Below, in pieces: positions 1,753 to 11,700 of a DNA stretch of 64,000 bases (the stretch's first letter is position 1; each line of letters begins with the position of its first letter). The translations under genes and the position numbers were made by a program. The DNA comes from an uncultured Phycisphaerales bacterium (GTDB lineage Bacteria > Planctomycetota > Phycisphaerae > Sedimentisphaerales > Anaerobacaceae): the NCBI GenBank assembly GCA_963718665.1, contig OY970359.1, positions 1,792,001 through 1,856,000 on the forward strand, read 5' to 3'. The notes below the pieces were generated by a model. The model was not told where the DNA came from and searched no databases. It saw nothing but the letters and a program-made list of their open reading frames with translations.

Positions 1753-3606
1753 TCATTGCCCCGCGGCTTGCGGGATTTGTTTTGTCGTTTCAGCAAGGTG
1801 CTTCAGCAGGTAATCTTTTTCCGGGCCGCCAAGATGTTCCCAAGGCAGGATTTCTTCGGTTGAGAATTGTTTTTGTGCGGCGGCATCGAGATTCATACCG
1901 TATTTTTTAAACGCATCATCCCAGATTGCCGGGTTGAATGTCTCGCTCCACAAATCGAATTTTGCGCCGTTGCGCCAGGCGTATTCAATCACATCTGCTA
2001 ATCGCCTGTCGCCTCGCCCGGTGGCTGATTCGAGAATCGACTGGTCTATCTCGTGGAATTTGAACTGGAGATATTTGGCGTTGATTTTTCTTTTCTCGGA
2101 GATGATTGTGTTTTTGGCGTTTTCGAAATACTCACGCGGCTGCTGCGCGAGCCAGCCGAAGGGCGTGTGCGGCTTGGGGACAAGCCAGCTCACCGCGACG
2201 TTGACCGAGGCGGTTTTGCCGTCGAAATTCCTGCGCAGTTTTGCCAGTTTGTCCGCGAGATGAACGATTTGCCTGATGTCGTCCTCGGTCTCGCCGGGCA
2301 GGCCTGTCATAAAGTACAATTTGATTTTCTGCCAGCCCGCCTGATAAGCGGCTGAGACGGCAGCGAAAAGGTCCTCGTCTTTCAACGGCTTATTGATGAT
2401 TTGCCTCAGCCGTTCGGATGCCGCCTCGACCGCGATGGTCAGGCCCGATTTTCGCACCTCGTTTGCAAGCGTTGGAAGGAGTTTCAACTGCTGGTCAACC
2501 CGCAAACTTGGCAGCGACAGCCCCACGTATTTATCCGTAAAATAACTGTGCAGCAGGTCAATCAGCTTTTCGATATCGGGATAATCGGCGGTAGATAAGC
2601 TCAATAAGCTGATTGTATCGAAGCCCGTCGCCTCGTAAGCAGCTTTGGCTATCTCGAAGATTTTGTCGATGCTGCGATAACGTATAGGCCTTCTGCAGAA
2701 GCTCGCCTGGCAAAACCTGCACCGGCCGGGGCAGCCCCGCATAATCTCAATACTGACCCGCTCATGAATCGCCTCGGCGAACGGCACAATTGGTTTTTTA
2801 GGCAGCGGCGCGTTATCGAGGTCGTCAACAATTGCGTTTTTGAATCGCGTGGGCAGGTTTTCTTTGACAGCGGCAAGCGATTTAATTTTTTCGCCATCGT
2901 ACTCGAATTTATAAAGCGACGGAACATATGCCCAGTCGAATTTTTCCGCCGCGGCAAGCAATATATCTTTTTTCGATGCGCCGGCTTTTTTGAGGTCGAT
3001 AATCAATCGGGCCAAATCAGGGACCGCATTTTCCGCCTCGCCGATAACAAACAGGTCAATGAATGGCGCAATCGGCTCGCAGCAGTTGGCCATACCGCCG
3101 CCCGCGATAATAATCGGGTCGGCTTCGCTTCGGTTTTCACTGCGAATGTTCAAGCCCGCCAAATCCAGCATATTCAGCACGTTGGTATAGCACAATTCGT
3201 TGGTCAAACTGAAGCCGATGACGTCGAAATCCTTGATGGCGGCCCTCGATTCGAGCGAGAAAAGCGGGATACCCTTTTCTCGCAGGATTTGCTCGGCGTC
3301 TAACCACGGCGCAAAAACCCGCTCTGCGGCGACGGCCTGCGGTGAGCCTGTCGAATCCGCGGGCATACGGTTGAGGACCTCGTAAACTACCGCCATTCCC
3401 GTATAGCTCATCCCGACCTCGTAAGTATCGGGAAAACATAACGCGATGGCTAAGCCACAATCGGCGAGGTCTTTTTTTATCTGATTGATTTCGCCGCCTA
3501 TGTATCTGCTGGGCCTGCGGACAAAGGGCAGGAATTCGCGGTCGATTCTTTCAGTCAGTATGGTTCGACTATGCTCACCACTGGTTGTCGGTTCTTTTCT
3601 TTTCAC
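1753..3606 (-). CDS. B12-binding-like radical SAM protein (TIGR03960 type)
   Basis: PSRYIGGEIN, FPDTYEVGMS, AERVFAP and EIMRGCPGRCRFCQA (CxxxCxxC). GTG 3606 preferred as start because the longer ORF runs through heptamer repeats. Confidence 0.9.
   Translation of the reverse strand: MKRKEPTTSGEHSRTILTERIDREFLPFVRRPSRYIGGEINQIKKDLADCGLAIALCFPDTYEVGMSYTGMAVVYEVLNRMPADSTGSPQAVAAERVFAPWLDAEQILREKGIPLFSLESRAAIKDFDVIGFSLTNELCYTNVLNMLDLAGLNIRSENRSEADPIIIAGGGMANCCEPIAPFIDLFVIGEAENAVPDLARLIIDLKKAGASKKDILLAAAEKFDWAYVPSLYKFEYDGEKIKSLAAVKENLPTRFKNAIVDDLDNAPLPKKPIVPFAEAIHERVSIEIMRGCPGRCRFCQASFCRRPIRYRSIDKIFEIAKAAYEATGFDTISLLSLSTADYPDIEKLIDLLHSYFTDKYVGLSLPSLRVDQQLKLLPTLANEVRKSGLTIAVEAASERLRQIINKPLKDEDLFAAVSAAYQAGWQKIKLYFMTGLPGETEDDIRQIVHLADKLAKLRRNFDGKTASVNVAVSWLVPKPHTPFGWLAQQPREYFENAKNTIISEKRKINAKYLQFKFHEIDQSILESATGRGDRRLADVIEYAWRNGAKFDLWSETFNPAIWDDAFKKYGMNLDAAAQKQFSTEEILPWEHLGGPEKDYLLKHLAETTKQIPQAAGQ
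3339..3360. repeat. Short palindromic element (TGAGC-N2-3-GTCGAA family) inside the radical SAM CDS
   Basis: GCGG-TGAGCCTGTCGAAT-CCGC. Related copies at 3561-3580, 4290-4310 and 63418-63439. Confidence 0.7.
3561..3580. repeat. Short palindromic element (TGAGC-N2-3-GTCGAA family, opposite orientation) near the 5' end of the radical SAM CDS
   Basis: TGGT-TCGACTATGCTC-ACCA. The reverse complement contains TGAGC-ATA-GTCGAA. Confidence 0.65.
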
Positions 3607-3626
3607 CCGCGTATTATAACGGATGA

Positions 3627-3700
3627 TTAGCGGATAGCGTAGAGCGTTTAGCGGATAGTTCAACCTCAAATCAAAAATCAAAATGCAAAAGGCAAAAATG
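3627..3700. repeat. Two degenerate heptamer tandem arrays
   Basis: ttagcgg-atagcgt-agagcgt-ttagcgg-atag (3627-3658) and caaatca-aaaatca-aaatgca-aaaggca (3667-3694). Confidence 0.7.
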
Positions 3701-4075
3701 CGGTATCCCTAAGGGATGGATTTTAGTTTGAAGCCGAGCAAAGACATAGATTTCGCTGAAGGTGGGTAAAAGTTCAAAATTAGTATAAGGGGAAGCTTAT
3801 CATTCAACCAAAAACGCAAAAAAGTTTGGGAAGAAATGAGCGGATAAACGTTACAGTTAGCCCAGATTAACGAAGATGGGCAAGATGGGAAACGTAGGGT
3901 AGGAAAAATATTTTTTCATTTCAAAAAACGTTCAAAAAGTGACCCAAAAATGCGCGAAATTGACAAAAGTGAGCACGATTTGACAAAAAAAATACAAAAA
4001 GTGACAGATTTTGTGCAATTTTGTACACGTTTTTTCAGTTCGATATATTAGCGGAATTAATTGTTAAAATAGAGA

Positions 4076-4103
4076 GGTTAGTCGTTAGTGGTTAGTCGAT
4101 AGT
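4076..4103. repeat. Heptamer tandem array
   Basis: ggttagt-cgttagt-ggttagt-cgatagt. Confidence 0.75.
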
Positions 4104-4134
4104 CCGCCGGAGGCGGCAAAGATTGCCCAGATTA

Positions 4135-4169
4135 ACCCCATGAGATAGCGAAACGGCATCTCACGGGGT
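4135..4169. repeat. Short variant of the CCCGTGAGAT...ATCTCACGGG palindromic element
   Basis: ACCCCATGAGAT-11 nt-ATCTCACGGGGT. Termini resemble the 60-bp elements at 43177, 47044, 48764 and 50443. Confidence 0.65.
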
Positions 4170-4289
4170 GAACACGGATTTTTAAGGGAAAAAGCTTGTT
4201 TTCGATTTTAGTTTGGGGATATACTGTTACTTTAAGGCCGGAAGAAAAGATTATTGAAGAAAACGCACCTTTGGCCGTCAGCTTTGCCT

Positions 4290-4310
4290 GCCCTGAGCTT
4301 GTCGAAGGGC
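4290..4310. repeat. Short palindromic element (TGAGC-N2-3-GTCGAA family), intergenic
   Basis: GCCCT-GAGCTTGTCGA-AGGGC, 5-bp stem. Confidence 0.7.
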
Positions 4311-4392
4311 TATTTGGAATATGCCTTTGTAGACTGAGGAAATAAATAGGGTATCGTTGTAATTCTAAAGGTTTGTTTTTAAGGTAAGATGA

Positions 4393-4908
4393 ATGGGAGA
4401 AAGAATAATATATGAATATAGATCACCATCGCTAATCCCCACGGATCATTTGCATGATATCGTTCAACTAATTTCAGATGGCGGAGAAGTAGACAACAAA
4501 ACACTTTGGGATAAAATTAATAATGCTATTATTATAGGATACGCTATCGCAAATGATTTAGTTGTGGGGACTGGTGCATTGAAGAAGCCGCATGACTCCA
4601 GTAACGATAATGCTTTTGTAAAAGCAGGTGCAGACGTCAAGTATGAAGACTATCCTTATGAATTGGGATACGTATTTGTGAAAGAGAATCATCGAGGAGC
4701 ATTTGTTGCAAGCCGAATTTGTAATACACTATGCAAGATGTACTCACGCGCGAATATCTATTCGACATTGAGATCAGACAACAGAATCGCACGCTTATTA
4801 ATGGAAAGGTCAGGATTTACCCAATCTGGAACAAGCTTCATGAGTAGAAACGGCAAGGATATGCTTATGTTATATATTAGAAATGCACAAAATGGATTAT
4901 CAAGATGA
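4393..4908 (+). CDS. GNAT family N-acetyltransferase
   Basis: ELGYVFVKENHRGAFVASRI (motif A-like) and N-x9-GF (DNRIARLLMERSGF). TAAGGT upstream. Stop overlaps the next start (ATGA). Confidence 0.8.
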   Translation: MGERIIYEYRSPSLIPTDHLHDIVQLISDGGEVDNKTLWDKINNAIIIGYAIANDLVVGTGALKKPHDSSNDNAFVKAGADVKYEDYPYELGYVFVKENHRGAFVASRICNTLCKMYSRANIYSTLRSDNRIARLLMERSGFTQSGTSFMSRNGKDMLMLYIRNAQNGLSR

Positions 4909-6485
4909 TAGCAGTTAGTACACCGGACAAAAGACAAAACCGAGAGTTGCTCTTACTTGCCAATGCTGCAAGAATGGCAGCCCAGAAGAGAATGGGATAT
5001 TCGCACTACGCATACTTTCTTGCGTGCATATGTTCGGTTTTATCGCTCTTCATGGGAAGCGTTGTAAGCATAGTGCTCGCAGTTATAGGTACTATATTAG
5101 CAGGGAGCGGTTTGCTGATCAGGTCCCGATGTATGAGGATTCATTATCTATCGCGAGAGGCTCAAAGGCTGGCTCTTCTGGAGGATTCGCTCGGAAGAAT
5201 TGCAGAAGACTACCACATTGTTGAGCTTCGTCGGAAAATGGGCGTGGAGATAGAAAAGAAAGCAAAAACTTACTTACTTGAAAAAAGCTATTACCGTAGC
5301 AAGAAACCTAGAGGTCAATCGAGATTGAAAGAGAACATGCAACAAAGCTCGTTTTGGAGCAAAGCATTACTTGATAAATACTCTTTCTATCTCTATCTGA
5401 TCGTTTTGATTTATGTAGTTGCAATGATAGCTACTCTGGTTATTTATGTAGTCATACACAGTAAAGAGCCTGAATATACGGGAAACATTGCAGTACTTAT
5501 AGTCTCCACATTGGTCCTATTGGGGATTGTGCTGGAAGAATGGAGAGCGGCGAGGAGCGTGAAGCTTGCGGTGGAAATGCTTGAAGGCGTCGATAATCAG
5601 TTGGATACAGTTTATGAGGATGATAGCATAGTCATAATATCCAAATTTGCAGACTATGGAATATCCGTAACTGAGGCTCCCCCTATTCCCTATATCATCT
5701 ATGCCTTCAACAAGGATCATCTAAGAGGGCTATGGGACAAAAGATTGCATGTTAGACTTTTGAGTGTAGAAGAACTGTCCGGAAGCATGGATTTGCCTAC
5801 AATAGACATGGAGGACTGCATGCCTCCAACTTGGATCGATGATGGCGAGTTCAAATTATTGCTTTTAAATACCTGCCTATTCGTACGGAATAGATTTAAG
5901 GGCGTAATGATAACAAGAGTAACCGTAAATGGCTTACCGGGATATAGTGGTGTCGGAGTATACTCTTTGAAGTATTTCGCGGACAACTCAACAGTAATAC
6001 AGTACGTTCTTAGGTTACATGAAGAAGAGGAGCAGGCTCGACGGGAGTACAATACCATCGAAAAAATATCGAGTACGGGATTTGACGTATTCGCATATGT
6101 CCCTGTCGGTGAGCCTTATATAGCACATGGTGCGTTGTTGTATACGCATGCCAACCACCAAACATATGATGTGCTTAAACACTTGCATGTATTTCTGGGT
6201 GATCTCATTAACGACAGCGACCTGCTTGTAGAGGTGAGACTTAGGAAATTATCTCATGGTATTCGAACGCTGATAAAGGCATTGAGTTCTATTGAAAAAC
6301 CTGAATATATTACGACATTGGACTACTATAAAAACAATACACTCAATTTCCCCCCTCGAAATATTCTAGACTTACGAAATACGACTCACAAAATTGCCGA
6401 TGGGATCATTCACATCGACTGCAAGTCAGAACGAGGAGGCATTTCAGTCAATGATGGACCATTGCAATATAGTAAATGGCTTTGA
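4905..6485 (+). CDS. S-4TM-like four-TM putative pore-forming effector fused to the N-lobe of a kinase-fold (APH/TCAD9-like) domain
   Basis: Two hydrophobic helix pairs (aa ~35-72 and ~160-210) with RQN, YYxS, QxSxFW..L..Y and APPIP..IY motifs resembling S_4TM. Then a Gly loop GYSGVGVY, YVLRL and a helix-C-like ARREY. Confidence 0.6.
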   Translation: MIAVSTPDKRQNRELLLLANAARMAAQKRMGYSHYAYFLACICSVLSLFMGSVVSIVLAVIGTILAGSGLLIRSRCMRIHYLSREAQRLALLEDSLGRIAEDYHIVELRRKMGVEIEKKAKTYLLEKSYYRSKKPRGQSRLKENMQQSSFWSKALLDKYSFYLYLIVLIYVVAMIATLVIYVVIHSKEPEYTGNIAVLIVSTLVLLGIVLEEWRAARSVKLAVEMLEGVDNQLDTVYEDDSIVIISKFADYGISVTEAPPIPYIIYAFNKDHLRGLWDKRLHVRLLSVEELSGSMDLPTIDMEDCMPPTWIDDGEFKLLLLNTCLFVRNRFKGVMITRVTVNGLPGYSGVGVYSLKYFADNSTVIQYVLRLHEEEEQARREYNTIEKISSTGFDVFAYVPVGEPYIAHGALLYTHANHQTYDVLKHLHVFLGDLINDSDLLVEVRLRKLSHGIRTLIKALSSIEKPEYITTLDYYKNNTLNFPPRNILDLRNTTHKIADGIIHIDCKSERGGISVNDGPLQYSKWL

Positions 6486-7191
6486 ATATCAAGTTAATGC
6501 TTATGAAATCAACTATAACAGAAATGGTCAACTTCATAGAATCCTGTTGTCAAAGCGAGAAGATTATAGAACGCTGTTAACACGAGGTAGCATTAATGTT
6601 TTGTACAGGGGCACGAGCCCTTACATTGACTTCGCTATCTATTGTCGCGATTCATTGAGAATAGAAGTTACGTGCTCTGAACCTAAGACATTGGTTGAAT
6701 CGTTCTGTGAAAATCATAGCAAGGAGCCACTCTGTACATGGTATTGCCATAACGATTTACACTGCAAAAACATATTGGTATCAGATAGCAACGTAAAGTT
6801 TGTTGATATTGGCGATGCTGGTCCAAACATTGCATGTAGAGATTCCTCAAGACTGGAACTTTCAATAATGTCTATGCTTTGCCTACAGGGTAGCGTGACA
6901 ACAAATGATTGCCTGACTGCATTGAAATACATGGATGGTGAAATAGATCAAGGCAACATCTCCATGCAAGCAGGAAAACTCGGAAAAATTTTGAAGATAG
7001 TGAAGGAAACCATGTTTGATGAGTTCGTTTATAGACCCTCAATTATTGACCAGAGACTTGCCAGCTTTGTTGAGGTATACGAACAGTTGAACTATTCTAT
7101 GTCATCAGCCATGCGTTTACCAGAGGGATTTGGGCCTATTGTTGATTATTACTACACAAAGTTCGATGATTTAACCAAAGCAACCACTTGA
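6451..7191 (+). CDS. Kinase-fold (APH/phosphotransferase-like) catalytic C-lobe; either a +1 frameshifted continuation of the upstream ORF or a separate gene
   Basis: CHNDLHCKNIL (HxDxxxxN catalytic loop), FVDIG (DFG equivalent) and D-x2-RLE. Overlaps the upstream ORF in the +1 frame. GAGGAGG at 6433-6439 precedes ATG 6451. Confidence 0.65.
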   Translation: MMDHCNIVNGFEYQVNAYEINYNRNGQLHRILLSKREDYRTLLTRGSINVLYRGTSPYIDFAIYCRDSLRIEVTCSEPKTLVESFCENHSKEPLCTWYCHNDLHCKNILVSDSNVKFVDIGDAGPNIACRDSSRLELSIMSMLCLQGSVTTNDCLTALKYMDGEIDQGNISMQAGKLGKILKIVKETMFDEFVYRPSIIDQRLASFVEVYEQLNYSMSSAMRLPEGFGPIVDYYYTKFDDLTKATT

Positions 7192-7210
7192 ATTATGAAA
7201 GGAATAAACA

Positions 7211-7843
7211 TTGAGCGTAAAAAAGATAGATGACGTTCGCAGGTTTGTAGAATACATATTTGCAGAATCGACACAACGATCATATTACGAGCACACTTTG
7301 AGAGTCTACCGTTTTGCATATTATATTGGAGAAGAGGAAAACGCAGATATGGAGATATTGTTGCCTGCGGTCTTAATGCATGACATAGGCATGACGATAG
7401 ACACAGGATTTCCCCGGCATGTAGATAAATCTGCATACCTTGCAAAGATGTACTTGAAAAGCAATGGTTATCCGAGCGACAAAACAGACAGAATATTGCA
7501 GGTTATAACATCTCATCACATTCCTCCTTATGAAACCAGAAAGAACAAAGAAGAAGAGGTTATTTTTGACGCTGACACACTAGAAATTGTTGGTGGCTAT
7601 GGCATATTGCGATGGCTAGGAAAGTCTATTTTGTCAGAACAGACCATCGTAGATTCGATCAACCTATTCAGTAATATTGTGAAGTCCGCAAAGGACAAAA
7701 GAGGATCCCTATTTTTCACCGAAACCGCTAAGAAACTTGGCGACAAGTCTGTAGAAGAGTCACTTGAATACTACCGCCGCATCATTGAGTACTTTGGAAC
7801 CTGTAAGTCATATACAGGCATTATATCACCCGTTGAAATATGA
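7211..7843 (+). CDS. HD-domain metal-dependent phosphohydrolase
   Basis: EHTLRV, AVLMHDIG, H, SHH and FDADTLE motifs. TTG start after AAGGA. Confidence 0.88.
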   Translation: MSVKKIDDVRRFVEYIFAESTQRSYYEHTLRVYRFAYYIGEEENADMEILLPAVLMHDIGMTIDTGFPRHVDKSAYLAKMYLKSNGYPSDKTDRILQVITSHHIPPYETRKNKEEEVIFDADTLEIVGGYGILRWLGKSILSEQTIVDSINLFSNIVKSAKDKRGSLFFTETAKKLGDKSVEESLEYYRRIIEYFGTCKSYTGIISPVEI

Positions 7844-7855
7844 GTCTGTGTTGAT

Positions 7856-8380
7856 ATGAAAAAGCAAATCATAGGACTATCTGGATATCGTTGTTCCGGC
7901 AAATCGGTGCTGCGACAATTGTTAGTTAAGAATGGATACGATGTATTTGACACAAATTCAGTCCCAACGGGTGACAATGATGCAAACCAAGTATCTTTCG
8001 ATGTTATTGAACGCTATGGAAAAGGTTCCTCCCTCATGTATTTCCTTGAGGATTCTCTAAGAAAATACGTGGAGTCCAGCGGGCGTTTTGTATTCATCGA
8101 TAGCTTCAAGACTTACAAGGATTATGAGGTCGTATCAGAGATGTTTCCAGAAAGCAATGTCGCTATATGGTATGTACACGCTTCATACAAGTTACGAGTT
8201 TCAAGATACAAAGTGAGAGACCTTGACGCAGGTGTACGGTCACAGAAGTTATCAGAGCATGATGATTCGCTTGATAAATTTGGAATGCCAGCATTAATCA
8301 AGCATGCGTCTTATGTTGTGAATATGGACGATGACAAAGACAAGATATTACAGAATGTTTTAAGGCAAATCATGAAATGA
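7856..8380 (+). CDS. P-loop nucleoside-monophosphate/dephospho-CoA-kinase-like protein (UPF0200/AAA-like)
   Basis: IIGLSGYRCSGKS Walker A, FVFIDS Walker B-like and a lid-like R-x2-R-x3-R (RVSRYKVR). Confidence 0.78.
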   Translation: MKKQIIGLSGYRCSGKSVLRQLLVKNGYDVFDTNSVPTGDNDANQVSFDVIERYGKGSSLMYFLEDSLRKYVESSGRFVFIDSFKTYKDYEVVSEMFPESNVAIWYVHASYKLRVSRYKVRDLDAGVRSQKLSEHDDSLDKFGMPALIKHASYVVNMDDDKDKILQNVLRQIMK

Positions 8381-8582
8381 TAATGTCAAAAATATTTCGC
8401 AAATTCTGTGATATACCCTTCATCTGGTCGTAGCCATTAAAATACCAACACCATGGGGATAGTAAGAATTTGCCGTTGAAAAAAGTTTTGGTTTGGGTAG
8501 AATTGGGGGGTAAGCAATTTTCGATTTTCGATTGCCGATTTTGGGATGCGGAGGGGCATTTCCAGAACGATACAAGTGCGTA

Positions 8583-8611
8583 TTGACTCGCGGCATCAAT
8601 TGTTGTATAAA
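8583..8611 (+). promoter_or_regulatory. Putative sigma70-type promoter for nifJ
   Basis: TTGACT-17 nt-TATAAA. Confidence 0.55.
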
Positions 8612-8744
8612 TATCCGTTTTACCGCAGAGACCGCGAGGCACGCAGAGATAAATTTTTGGTTTTTCTGTGTTATTGGCCTTCTCAGCGGCAAAAAAGGGG
8701 TTTTTCTCGCAATAATGATAATCTTTTTGAGAGGTTAGGCAATT

Positions 8745-11700
8745 ATGGCAACGGCAAGACGCATGGTAACGATAGACGGGAATACGGCGGCGGCGCATGT
8801 GGCGCACGCGACGAATGAAGTAATAGCGATATATCCGATAACGCCGAGTTCGCCGATGGGCGAGATTTCGGATGATAAAACAGCCCGGAGCGAACGCAAT
8901 ATATGGGGCACGATTCCGTCGGTAACGGAAATGCAGTCGGAAGGCGGAGCGGCAGGGGCGGTTCACGGCGCTCTGACGGCAGGGGCGCTGACGACGACCT
9001 TTACGGCGTCGCAGGGCCTTCTGCTGATGATACCGGATATGTATAAAATCGCGGGCGAATTGCTGCCCACAGTGTTTCATATAACGGCGAGGTCGCTGGC
9101 GGCGCATGCGTTGTCGATATTCGGCGACCAGGCGGACGTGATGGCGTGCAGGCAGACGGGATGGGGGATGCTTTGCAGCGCCTCTGTGCAGGAGGTAATG
9201 GATTTTGCGTTGATAACTCAGGCGGCGACGCTTGAAAGCCGAGTGCCGTTTTTGCATTTCTTCGACGGGTTCCGCACGAGCCATGAGATTCAGAAGGTCG
9301 AAGAGCTGAGCTATGATGATATGCGGGCGATGATTCCGGATGAGCTGGTTGCGGCGGTGAAGGCGAGGGCGTTGTCGCCTGACAGGCCGATGATTGCGGG
9401 AACGGCGCAGAACCCGGATGTGTATTTCCAGGGCAGGGAGGCGGCGAATAATTTTTATACGGCGACGCCGGCGATTGTGCAGAAGGCGATGGATAAGTTC
9501 GCCAAAATTGTCGGACGGCAGTATCATTTGTTCGATTATGTCGGGGCGGCTGATGCCGAGAAGGTCATCATAATTATGGGTTCGGGCGCGGATACGGCGC
9601 ATGAGACGGTTGAGTATCTTAATTCAAAGGGTCAGAAAATTGGCGTATTAAAAGTACGGCTTTTCAGGCCTTTCAGCGTACAGGATTTCATCAATGCATT
9701 ACCAAAGACCGTGAAGAAAATTGCGGTATTGGACAGGACAAAGGAGCCGGGCGCGCTGGGCGAGCCGTTATATATGGATATTCGCACGGCGGTCGGCGAG
9801 GCGATGGGCAGAAAGCAAAGCCCCTTCAAAGATTACCCGGTGATTGTGGGCGGCAGATACGGGCTTGGCTCGAAGGAATTTACGCCCGCGATGGTCAAGG
9901 CGGTGTTCGATAATCTCGACGCGAAAGAGCCGAAGAATGGTTTTACCGTGGGCATTATCGACGACGTTTCGAATACGAGCTTGGATTTCGATGAGTCGTT
10001 TGTGCTGCCGGCGGAGGGGATTTATACGGCGATGTTCTACGGGCTGGGTTCTGACGGCACGGTCGGCGCGAACCACAACTCGATACAGATTATCGGGCAA
10101 AAAACTGACAACAACGCGCAGGGTTATTTCGTTTACGATTCGAAGAAGGCGGGCGCGATTACGATATCGCATCTGCGGTTCGGCAAAAAGACGATTCGCA
10201 GGCCATACCTGATTACCAAGGCGGATTTCGTCGCGTGCCACAACCCAAGCTTCTTAGAAAAATACGATATGCTCTCGACCGCCAAAGACGGGGCGACGTT
10301 TTTGATGACGAGTATGTACCCGGCGGACAAGGTTTGGGACACGCTGCCTCAGGAAGTGCAAAAGCAGATAATCGACAAGAAACTGAAATTCTACGTTATC
10401 GACGCGATATCGCTCGCCAAGGAAATCGGTCTTGGCGCGAGAATCAATACGATTATGCAGGTGGCGTTCTTCAAAATCAGCAACATCATACCGATTGAGA
10501 AAGCGATTGAGGCAATCAAGGCGGCGATACAGAAGAGCTACGGCAAGAAGGGCGAAAGAATCGTCGCGATGAATAACGCAGCGGTTGACGGTGCATTGGC
10601 GAAGGTCTTTGAGGTCAAGGTGCCGGGCAAGGTTACGAGCAAAACGACCAAGCCGCCGGTTGTGTCGAAGGATGCGCCGAAGTTTGTGCAGGAAGTAACC
10701 GCGGAGATTATGGCGCTGCGAGGGGACAAGCTGCCCATCAGCAAACTGCCGAATGACGGCAAATGGCCGAGCGGGACAACGAAATTCGAGAAACGCAATA
10801 TCGCGGTCGATATACCGGCGTGGGAGCCGTCGCTTTGTATTCAGTGCGGGACATGCTCGCTGGTTTGCCCGCACGGGACGATTCGGCTGAAGGCCTACGA
10901 CAAGAAGTATCTCGACAAGGCGCCGAAAGCATTCAAGAGTGCGGAGGCGAAAGGCAAGGAATTAGCGGGCCTGTCAGCGACTGTTCAGGTGGCCGCTGAG
11001 GATTGCACGGGATGCGGGGCGTGCGTGCAGATGTGCCCGGTGCAGGAAAAGGACGCGAATAAACAGCCAACGGGACGCAAGGCGATTAATATGACTTTGC
11101 AGGAGCCGCTGCGTGTGCAGGAAAGGGAAAACTATAAATATTTCCTGTCGATACCGAATACCGATTCGAAACTGTTCAAACGCGAAAGCGTCAAGGGCAG
11201 CCAGTTAATTATGCCTTTGTTTGAATATTCGGGCGCGTGCGCGGGCTGCGGCGAGACGCCTTATGTGAAACTTTTATCGCAGTTGTTCGGCGACAGGGCG
11301 ATGATAGGCAACGCGACGGGCTGCTCGTCGATTTACGGAGGCAACCTTCCGACGACGCCATACACGACGCGTGAAGACGGTCGCGGCCCGATTTGGAGCA
11401 ACAGCTTGTTCGAGGACAACGCCGAGTTCTCACTCGGTATGCGGCTGACGGTTGAAAAATTCAAACAACAGGCGGTCGAGCTGGTCGATGCGGTCGCCAA
11501 GAAGGGCTGTATCGATGCGGTATTTGCAGGCGAAATAATCGCCGCTGTGGCTGCCAATGACCCATCGCAGGACGCGATTGAGACGCAGCGAGGCCGGGTG
11601 GCGAAACTAAAAGAGCTGTGCAAGAAAAGCAATTGTGCCGAATGCAAACGATTGTTGACGCTGGCGGATTATCTTGTTCGCAAATCGGTGTGGGCGGTCG

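Follow-up and report, generated by a model that had tools for sequence, protein, structure and literature searches.

A 64,000-nucleotide stretch of the genome of an uncultured Phycisphaerales bacterium (contig OY970359.1, positions 1,792,001 to 1,856,000; here called the window) carries, at positions 4393 to 8380, an operon of four genes for a GNAT acetyltransferase, a membrane effector fused to a kinase, an HD phosphohydrolase and a P-loop protein resembling nucleotide kinases. The operon is real, conserved and apparently undescribed, and it joins a known kind of effector to what looks like a new signal pathway; it is broken here and intact elsewhere. The features of the locus and the evidence for each are as follows.

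4393..4908, + strand: gene A, GNAT acetyltransferase, 171 amino acids (Pfam PF00583 at its cut-off, E 5e-4; family profile against GNAT 3bln, E 6e-7)
4905..7191, + strand: gene B, fusion of a four-transmembrane-helix (4TM) effector with an aminoglycoside phosphotransferase (APH)/TCAD9-like kinase, ~760 codons, +1 frameshift inside (14 full-length relatives; tblastn with P0007/P0031 in two frames; base difference from run X3)
4905..5750, + strand: N-terminal four-helix membrane domain of gene B (PADLOC PDLC00724, hydropathy peaks, hhalign, ESM Atlas)
5790..7191, + strand: predicted small-molecule kinase domain of gene B (APH/choline/sugar-1-kinase fold) with a beta-rich insertion (AlphaFold2 model, VIA-align, motifs, TCAD9)
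6460..6468, + strand: site of the +1 frameshift, one extra base relative to run X3 (contig comparison)
6748-6762, + strand: catalytic HNDLH of the kinase domain
6802-6816, + strand: VDIGD of the kinase domain
7211..7843, + strand: gene C, HD phosphohydrolase, 210 amino acids, YpgQ/YedJ-like (Pfam HD, E 2.5e-15; profile matches to 2pq7, E 8e-16, and 5dqv, E 5e-15)
7856..8380, + strand: gene D, P-loop nucleotide-kinase-like protein, 174 amino acids, UPF0200/dephospho-CoA- and adenylate-kinase-like (3lw7/3h0k, E 5e-4)
3607..8744, no strand: variable cargo hotspot from the radical SAM gene to nifJ, with short elements at its non-coding edges that recur elsewhere in the genome (genus comparison)

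The open reading frames (ORFs) all lie on the same strand (4393-4908, 4905-6485, 6394/6451-7191, 7211-7843 and 7856-8380), the first two sharing an ATGA at 4905-4908 and the last two following intergenic gaps of 19 and 12 nt. The original prediction, made from the letters of the window alone, had described five tightly coupled ORFs; the coordinates, the first overlap and the gaps stand, but the second overlap, from an ATG at 6451 to a TGA at 6483-6485, is a frameshift within one gene, and the genes therefore number four. The operon was correctly described as more AT-rich than its flanks and as lying between a radical SAM gene (minus strand) and nifJ: its G+C content (GC) is 40.1% versus 49.2% for the genome, where a value of 0.40 or less is reached by 5 of 652 4-kb bins, and GC at third codon positions (GC3) is 0.32-0.43 in its ORFs versus 0.56-0.68 in four flanking genes. 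The region 3600-8800 showed no Rfam match, no notable repeats and no excess of promoter motifs.

Protein searches returned, in batches of six and then eight, 14 full-length relatives of gene B, all of them single proteins of 767-779 amino acids that span ORFs 2 and 3, and in tblastn the relative P0007 continues past the break, matching two frames of the window with 85-87% identity. Two separate genes at ORFs 2 and 3 are ruled out by these single-protein relatives and by the alignment across the break. Run X3, from a related strain, has one base fewer at 6464. Contigs of runs X1 (record 5) and X2 (record 12), two runs of one study of which X1 is possibly the source sample, bridge 6464 without a gap, and this rules out an assembly error at the frameshift. 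At window position 3903, which is non-coding, both contigs have one extra A that likely reflects a homopolymer error of the window assembly; because they bridge 6464 yet correct this homopolymer, the frameshift is present in the population and is no slip of assembly. The window's allele, left without the kinase catalytic lobe in frame, is probably inactive, and a Shine-Dalgarno-like stretch lies 11 nt upstream of the ATG at 6451, so that the C-lobe of the kinase could still be translated separately.

Other copies are broken elsewhere. In X3 an insertion at 5737-5739, with a 3-4 bp duplication, splits the effector directly after the 4TM domain; its loose ends are mutual inverted repeats and look IS3-like, and by eye the junction resembles the unusual C-terminus of the relative P0006. 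The effector gene of locus L011 is interrupted by an IS66 transposase, and in L003 the GNAT gene is frameshifted beside an intact effector. P0006 (291 amino acids) and the window allele both retain the whole 4TM domain with no working kinase, and both are carried by living populations. In the GNAT gene, 21 of 32 differences from X3 fall at third codon positions among the 40 listed of 261 differences, a bias that points to purifying selection on this gene.

The N-terminus of gene B forms four hydrophobic helices, as judged from hydropathy and from an AlphaFold2 model of the relative P0031, and a PADLOC profile for 4TM effectors of cyclic oligonucleotide-based antiphage signalling systems (CBASS), PDLC00724, matches residues 25-280 of the window's copy (E 3e-17) and 13 of 13 relatives over ~250 of its 287 positions. 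Stand-alone relatives of the domain, 285-289 amino acids in length, lie directly behind CBASS oligonucleotide cyclases in 3/3 cases found (L018 and L019 in the phylum sample, L063 in Nonomuraea), and hhalign returns 98.4% against the effector of L018; ESM Atlas features score 0.95 to S_4TM clusters, with 218 of 256 shared. The predicted S_4TM-type effector was thus right as to a CBASS-like 4TM domain, by the PADLOC profile, the relatives beside cyclases and the ESM Atlas likeness, although Pfam S_4TM itself went unmatched, and the domain reads as a diverged, S_4TM-like branch. Residues invariant in the stand-alone effectors and kept in the fused domain are R84, YY125-126, G133, R136, E139, F146, Y247, P258, W273 and R276 (P0031 numbering). 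Because the stand-alone systems have no separate sensor domain, the 4TM protein should bind the signal itself; the Protein Data Bank (PDB) had no sequence relative of the effector. S_4TM was reportedly first described by Burroughs in 2015, and the classification of CBASS is said to be that of Millman in 2020. An ESM Atlas cluster of 208 members, 404 amino acids long and mostly from Pseudomonadota, fuses a 4TM-like fold to a GrpB nucleotidyltransferase (TM 0.80, predicted models) and on those models is a parallel enzyme–effector fusion, a second self-contained example.

The model of P0031 (predicted local distance difference test, pLDDT, 82) superposes in VIA-align on Rv3168 (Z 15.9, root-mean-square deviation 4.8, 295 aligned), on maltokinase (15.8), on methylthioribose kinase (15.3) and on glucosamine kinase (14.6), the top rows being tied within 1 Z. 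The motif HxDxHxxN occurs in 17 of 17 relatives checked, R369, E380, H631, D633, N638 and D650 are conserved at 90% or more (alignment A2), and the features of an active APH/ELK kinase are all there, namely the fold, the beta-3 Arg, the alpha-C Glu, the HxD..N and the metal-binding Asp. The fused kinase is on this showing catalytically intact in the relatives, with a predicted fold like that of sugar/ribose small-molecule kinases. The Pfam family TCAD9 (PF19974; cut-off 40 bits) is passed by two of the nine family members scanned (P0017 with 45 and P0019 with 55 bits), the other seven scoring 25-33 bits and the window fragment 18.6. Folded alone, the beta-rich kinase insertion (~residues 487-591) reached pLDDT 56 and a best Z of 4.2 to TOBE/OB folds, a likeness that in so low-confidence a model may serve as a weak lead only.

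For the remaining genes the predicted domains (GNAT, HD and a nucleotide-kinase-like P-loop) were recovered by Pfam and profile matches. The alignment of gene C has invariant H28, H57-D58, H70, H102 and D120. The gene D profile aligns over its full length to the UPF0200 adenylate-kinase-like structures 3lw7/3h0k, with the Walker A GKS and an IDSxK motif invariant. A weak search for longer GNAT fusions found none.

Scans with the effector alignment identified three genome loci and six metagenome loci, two of which, L005 and L009, are the same, leaving eight distinct loci outside the window. A GNAT gene stands directly upstream of the effector in all eight, an HD gene directly downstream in all seven that reach far enough, and the order GNAT, 4TM/kinase, HD, P-loop in six of the six distinct loci long enough, with gaps mostly <40 nt; the conserved co-occurrence for which the prediction had proposed a search is therefore present. 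These loci belong to several lineages, including some labelled Verrucomicrobiae and Planctomycetota, and their operon GC is 30-53%. Pairwise gene identities are congruent over seven loci (Mantel 1-16 of 5040 permutations), as expected of genes moving together, which suggests a shared history and is not proof of co-evolution. L005, labelled Bifidobacteriaceae, is identical to L009 over 20,490 bases, and its bin label may be wrong because the genes around it look like those around the verrucomicrobial L003.

The operon family is a rare and mobile cassette. Among 401 genomes of the window's phylum, profiles for the GNAT, the P-loop protein and the fused effector all match the same two, the second being that of L004; in the phylum of L003 a relative occurs in 1 of 401 genomes, namely its own, and a search of 60 related genomes with P0008 gave none. 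No operon locus occurred in the viral contigs or annotated phages searched, and the plasmid collection yielded the stand-alone 4TM only. Horizontal acquisition, as predicted, is supported.

That site is a genus-wide hotspot. The radical SAM gene and nifJ lie within ~1.4 kb of each other in 5 of 21 genus relatives with nifJ, and in 11 of another 13 relatives both genes are present, separated by 2.0-8.1 kb of cargo that differs from genome to genome and is mostly low in GC; no integrase was seen in these radical SAM–nifJ gaps. Cargo of the hotspot in other genomes includes the following.

L042: RmrA-like
L044: SIR2
L054: TIR and GmrSD
L049: kinase-TPR (tentative)
L048, 1075-2693 (-) and 3166-5651 (+): membrane protein fused to a cytidine/dCMP deaminase domain, adjoining an NT5C nucleotidase, opposite an HD protein (tentative)
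L051, 1261-2828 (-): Pol-beta nucleotidyltransferase and pentapeptide-repeat ion channel (tentative), a pair that we take to resemble Hailong

The nucleotidase/deaminase pair of L048 has no PADLOC match and is possibly another nucleotide-based defence cassette. Around the outside loci, where the view extends to 10 kb and selected sets of 53 and 34 flank ORFs were scanned, defence genes neighbour the operon in four of the eight distinct loci and genes of integrative elements in two more.

L008: Gabija, two integrases, ArdC
L011: AbiEi, retron-type reverse transcriptase, PDC-M70A/B
L007: type II methylase, NACHT-TIR protein
L004: TIR, large ATPase
L003 and L005: serine recombinase, coupling-protein-like ATPase and ArdC of an integrative element
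L006: NUDIX gene only
L010: contig too short

Both these neighbours and the hotspot cargo lend support to the defence-type context that had been proposed. Inside the integrative element of L003 a peptide deformylase gene is coupled to a gene for a 276-residue membrane protein (L003:3790-5113, minus strand).

Taken with this context, the operon very probably serves defence or conflict in one form or another. From homologies, intact catalytic motifs, linkage and neighbourhood we would propose a role in defence, a signal, its direction and its trigger, and we lean, by no great distance, towards abortive infection, with a non-cyclic signal that carries acetyl and phosphate groups, is made by both kinases together with the GNAT and opens the 4TM effector, and with the HD enzyme erasing basal signal. 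Upon infection the fused kinase, perhaps switched on via its beta-barrel insertion, would phosphorylate a nucleotide or sugar-nucleotide at a hydroxyl, the P-loop kinase would add a further phosphate and the GNAT, in whatever order these reactions run, an acetyl mark that would set the product apart from any housekeeping metabolite. This ligand would bind the 4TM domain at its conserved cytoplasmic face and lead to assembly, breach of the membrane and death of the infected cell, whereas in the basal state the HD enzyme would hydrolyse its phosphoanhydride and clear it. That the operon is cyclase-free, as was claimed for it, is borne out: no CD-NTase cyclase was found among its four genes (a chance-level match, E 0.028, on the P-loop protein only) or among the flank ORFs scanned at the outside loci.

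The direction of the signal could be the reverse, with the enzymes constantly making an inhibitory ligand and with phage enzymes or sponges that drain it freeing the 4TM effector. Such a guard is unlikely. Panoptes uses this logic with a membrane effector, according to the accessible part of its description (PMC13434031), and three potential ligand-making enzymes are encoded here in cis; three independent lesions, all in the effector gene, would suit a guard as well, but that gene makes up 57% of the operon, and three of the four known lesions falling within it are therefore no excess over chance. The window and P0006 alleles tolerate a whole 4TM domain without the kinase lobe, so the kinase would not serve as an indispensable lid, nor would it make an inhibitor that the cell cannot do without, and a broken GNAT is tolerated in L003 next to an intact effector, if that lesion is real. 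The tolerated 4TM-only alleles fit an activating ligand. Improbable as well is a toxin–antitoxin or protein-modification system, with the 4TM domain as anchor or sensor and the kinase as a toxin of protein, lipid or an essential metabolite, reversed by the HD enzyme or blocked by acetylation: an anchor would not need the residues that the fused domain shares with stand-alone CBASS effectors, and the best structural matches are small-molecule kinases, even if protein and peptide kinases share this class of fold (matches to YihE, TvaE and Bud32) and conflict proteins exist in which TCAD9-like kinases are joined to TIR and STAND domains.

GNAT and APH folds are also the classic aminoglycoside-modifying pair, and APH enzymes are among the structural matches, as would be expected if the operon served detoxification or salvage instead of defence, in which case an acetyltransferase and an APH-like phosphotransferase would modify an antibiotic or amino sugar and the membrane protein would provide transport. 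We consider this quite unlikely, given that the membrane domain has its homologues among CBASS effectors and not in a transporter, that no resistance family passes its cut-off, that the neighbours are defence and mobile genes, and that an HD enzyme and a nucleotide kinase are ill-suited to drug modification. Lastly, the 4TM domain might sense a CBASS cyclic nucleotide made in trans, which the operon's enzymes would re-decorate with phosphate and acetyl groups to evade phage nucleases or sponges. The stand-alone 4TM relatives are indeed CBASS effectors, and the window genome has a separate two-gene CBASS elsewhere (C1:2317099-2318660, L062:5100-6661), with a cyclase (PDLC00801, E 1e-124) and a two-transmembrane-helix (2TM) effector (PDLC00702, E 6e-82). 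The flanks scanned hold no cyclase, however, and 3/3 other operon-bearing genomes are without a SMODS match, a weak negative in that the profile places even the cyclase of the window genome below its cut-off and these are metagenome-assembled genomes; we regard a signal in trans as very improbable.

Several observations weigh against the abortive-infection reading. Pfam S_4TM (PF18159) gives no match at E<=1 across the genome, and none in five 4TM sequences that include two stand-alone CBASS effectors. The substrate class of the GNAT and P-loop proteins is only weakly assigned (E 5e-4, generic), and the GNAT frameshift of L003 may be an assembly error or may mean that the GNAT is dispensable, while the cyclase at C1:2317099 could supply a ligand in trans. 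The counts of defence neighbours are raw and carry no control for defence density, and the hotspot cargo of L043 and L050 consists of two-component and ATP-binding cassette (ABC) genes, which are non-defence.

The prediction had recognised no named system in this gene combination, and PADLOC and literature searches gave none: PADLOC 2.0 matches the 4TM domain only and calls no system for the operon, and no description of the gene set was found in the literature, where supplementary candidate tables and subscription journals lay outside the scope and could list it. A term search of the main texts of PMC13069673 and bioRxiv 10.64898/2025.12.03.692087 yielded no 4TM or kinase. New bacterial immune signals, among them cyclic oligonucleotides, cyclic ADP-ribose (cADPR) isomers, deoxyinosine triphosphate (dITP) and N6-methyl-dAMP (m6dAMP), have each opened a field of sensors and phage counter-measures. 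Another messenger, with an APH-fold kinase as signal maker, would be predicted here because a CBASS-type effector is paired with enzymes unable to make a cyclic nucleotide. Tentatively, and at somewhat short of an even chance, the operon may represent an undescribed class whose alarm is an acetylated, multiply phosphorylated (sugar-)nucleotide, produced with neither cyclase nor TIR, made in part by the effector-fused kinase and erased by a dedicated HD enzyme. The operon would also open a way into the 4TM effectors, a class that has received little study, and into TCAD9-like kinases, and it is directly testable because intact natural copies of ~4 kb exist.

Comparison with known systems, drawn from the accessible parts of the reports cited, places the operon beside several of them. 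CBASS with a 4TM effector (PDLC00724; Pfam PF18159) has a domain homologous to the operon's N-terminal domain over its whole length, but the operon is without a CD-NTase, fuses the effector to an APH-like kinase and adds three further enzymes. In Kongming (KomABC) dITP is made by a modifying enzyme together with nucleotide kinases (bioRxiv 10.1101/2024.12.20.629578), and the non-cyclic modified-nucleotide signal proposed here would arise in a like manner; Kongming is described as relying on a deaminase, phage kinases, a dead HAM1 sensor and a Sir2 NADase, whereas the operon encodes kinases of its own together with an acetyltransferase and a membrane effector, and its five ORFs gave no Pfam, NCBIfam or PADLOC match to adenosine deaminase, HAM1 or Sir2. 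In type II Metis (MisB-MisC) a mononucleotide gates the membrane effector, and a phosphatase encoded by the system removes basal signal (bioRxiv 10.1101/2025.11.05.686725), so that a system-encoded phosphatase clearing the basal signal of a membrane effector would have a precedent. Metis is reported to sense m6dAMP and make no signal, with a HAD phosphatase, a protein of three transmembrane helices and neither kinase nor GNAT; the operon's phosphatase is of the HD and not the HAD type, and its effector has four transmembrane helices and a kinase.

The TCAD9/APH-like kinases of the vWA-MoxR-VMAP ternary systems are proposed to act on low-molecular-weight substrates (PMC7159879, PMC10910872), and the operon's kinase resembles TCAD9, above the cut-off in P0017 and P0019, but it is fused to a CBASS-type 4TM domain; no MoxR, vWA or VMAP was present in the operon or the flank ORFs scanned, the short contigs of L006 and L010 limiting the view there. 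Gene C is closest to structures of the YpgQ family, 5DQV being YpgQ, a (d)NTP diphosphatase, and it has the six-residue H..HD..H..H..D pattern that is tied to two-metal sites such as that of YqeK (PMC8177086); unlike those enzymes it forms a dedicated subfamily confined to the operon. As to prokaryotic viperin systems, one P-loop relative, in L007, weakly matches VakA, the viperin-associated kinase (E 4e-5); the radical SAM gene next to the window's operon is a conserved gene of the genus on the other strand, and the flank ORFs of the outside loci scanned had no radical SAM match. Related domains in other systems are described in PMC10910872, PMC9503650 and PMC10853773. The operon falls outside CBASS, Kongming, Metis and the ternary systems, while sharing one module or idea with each.

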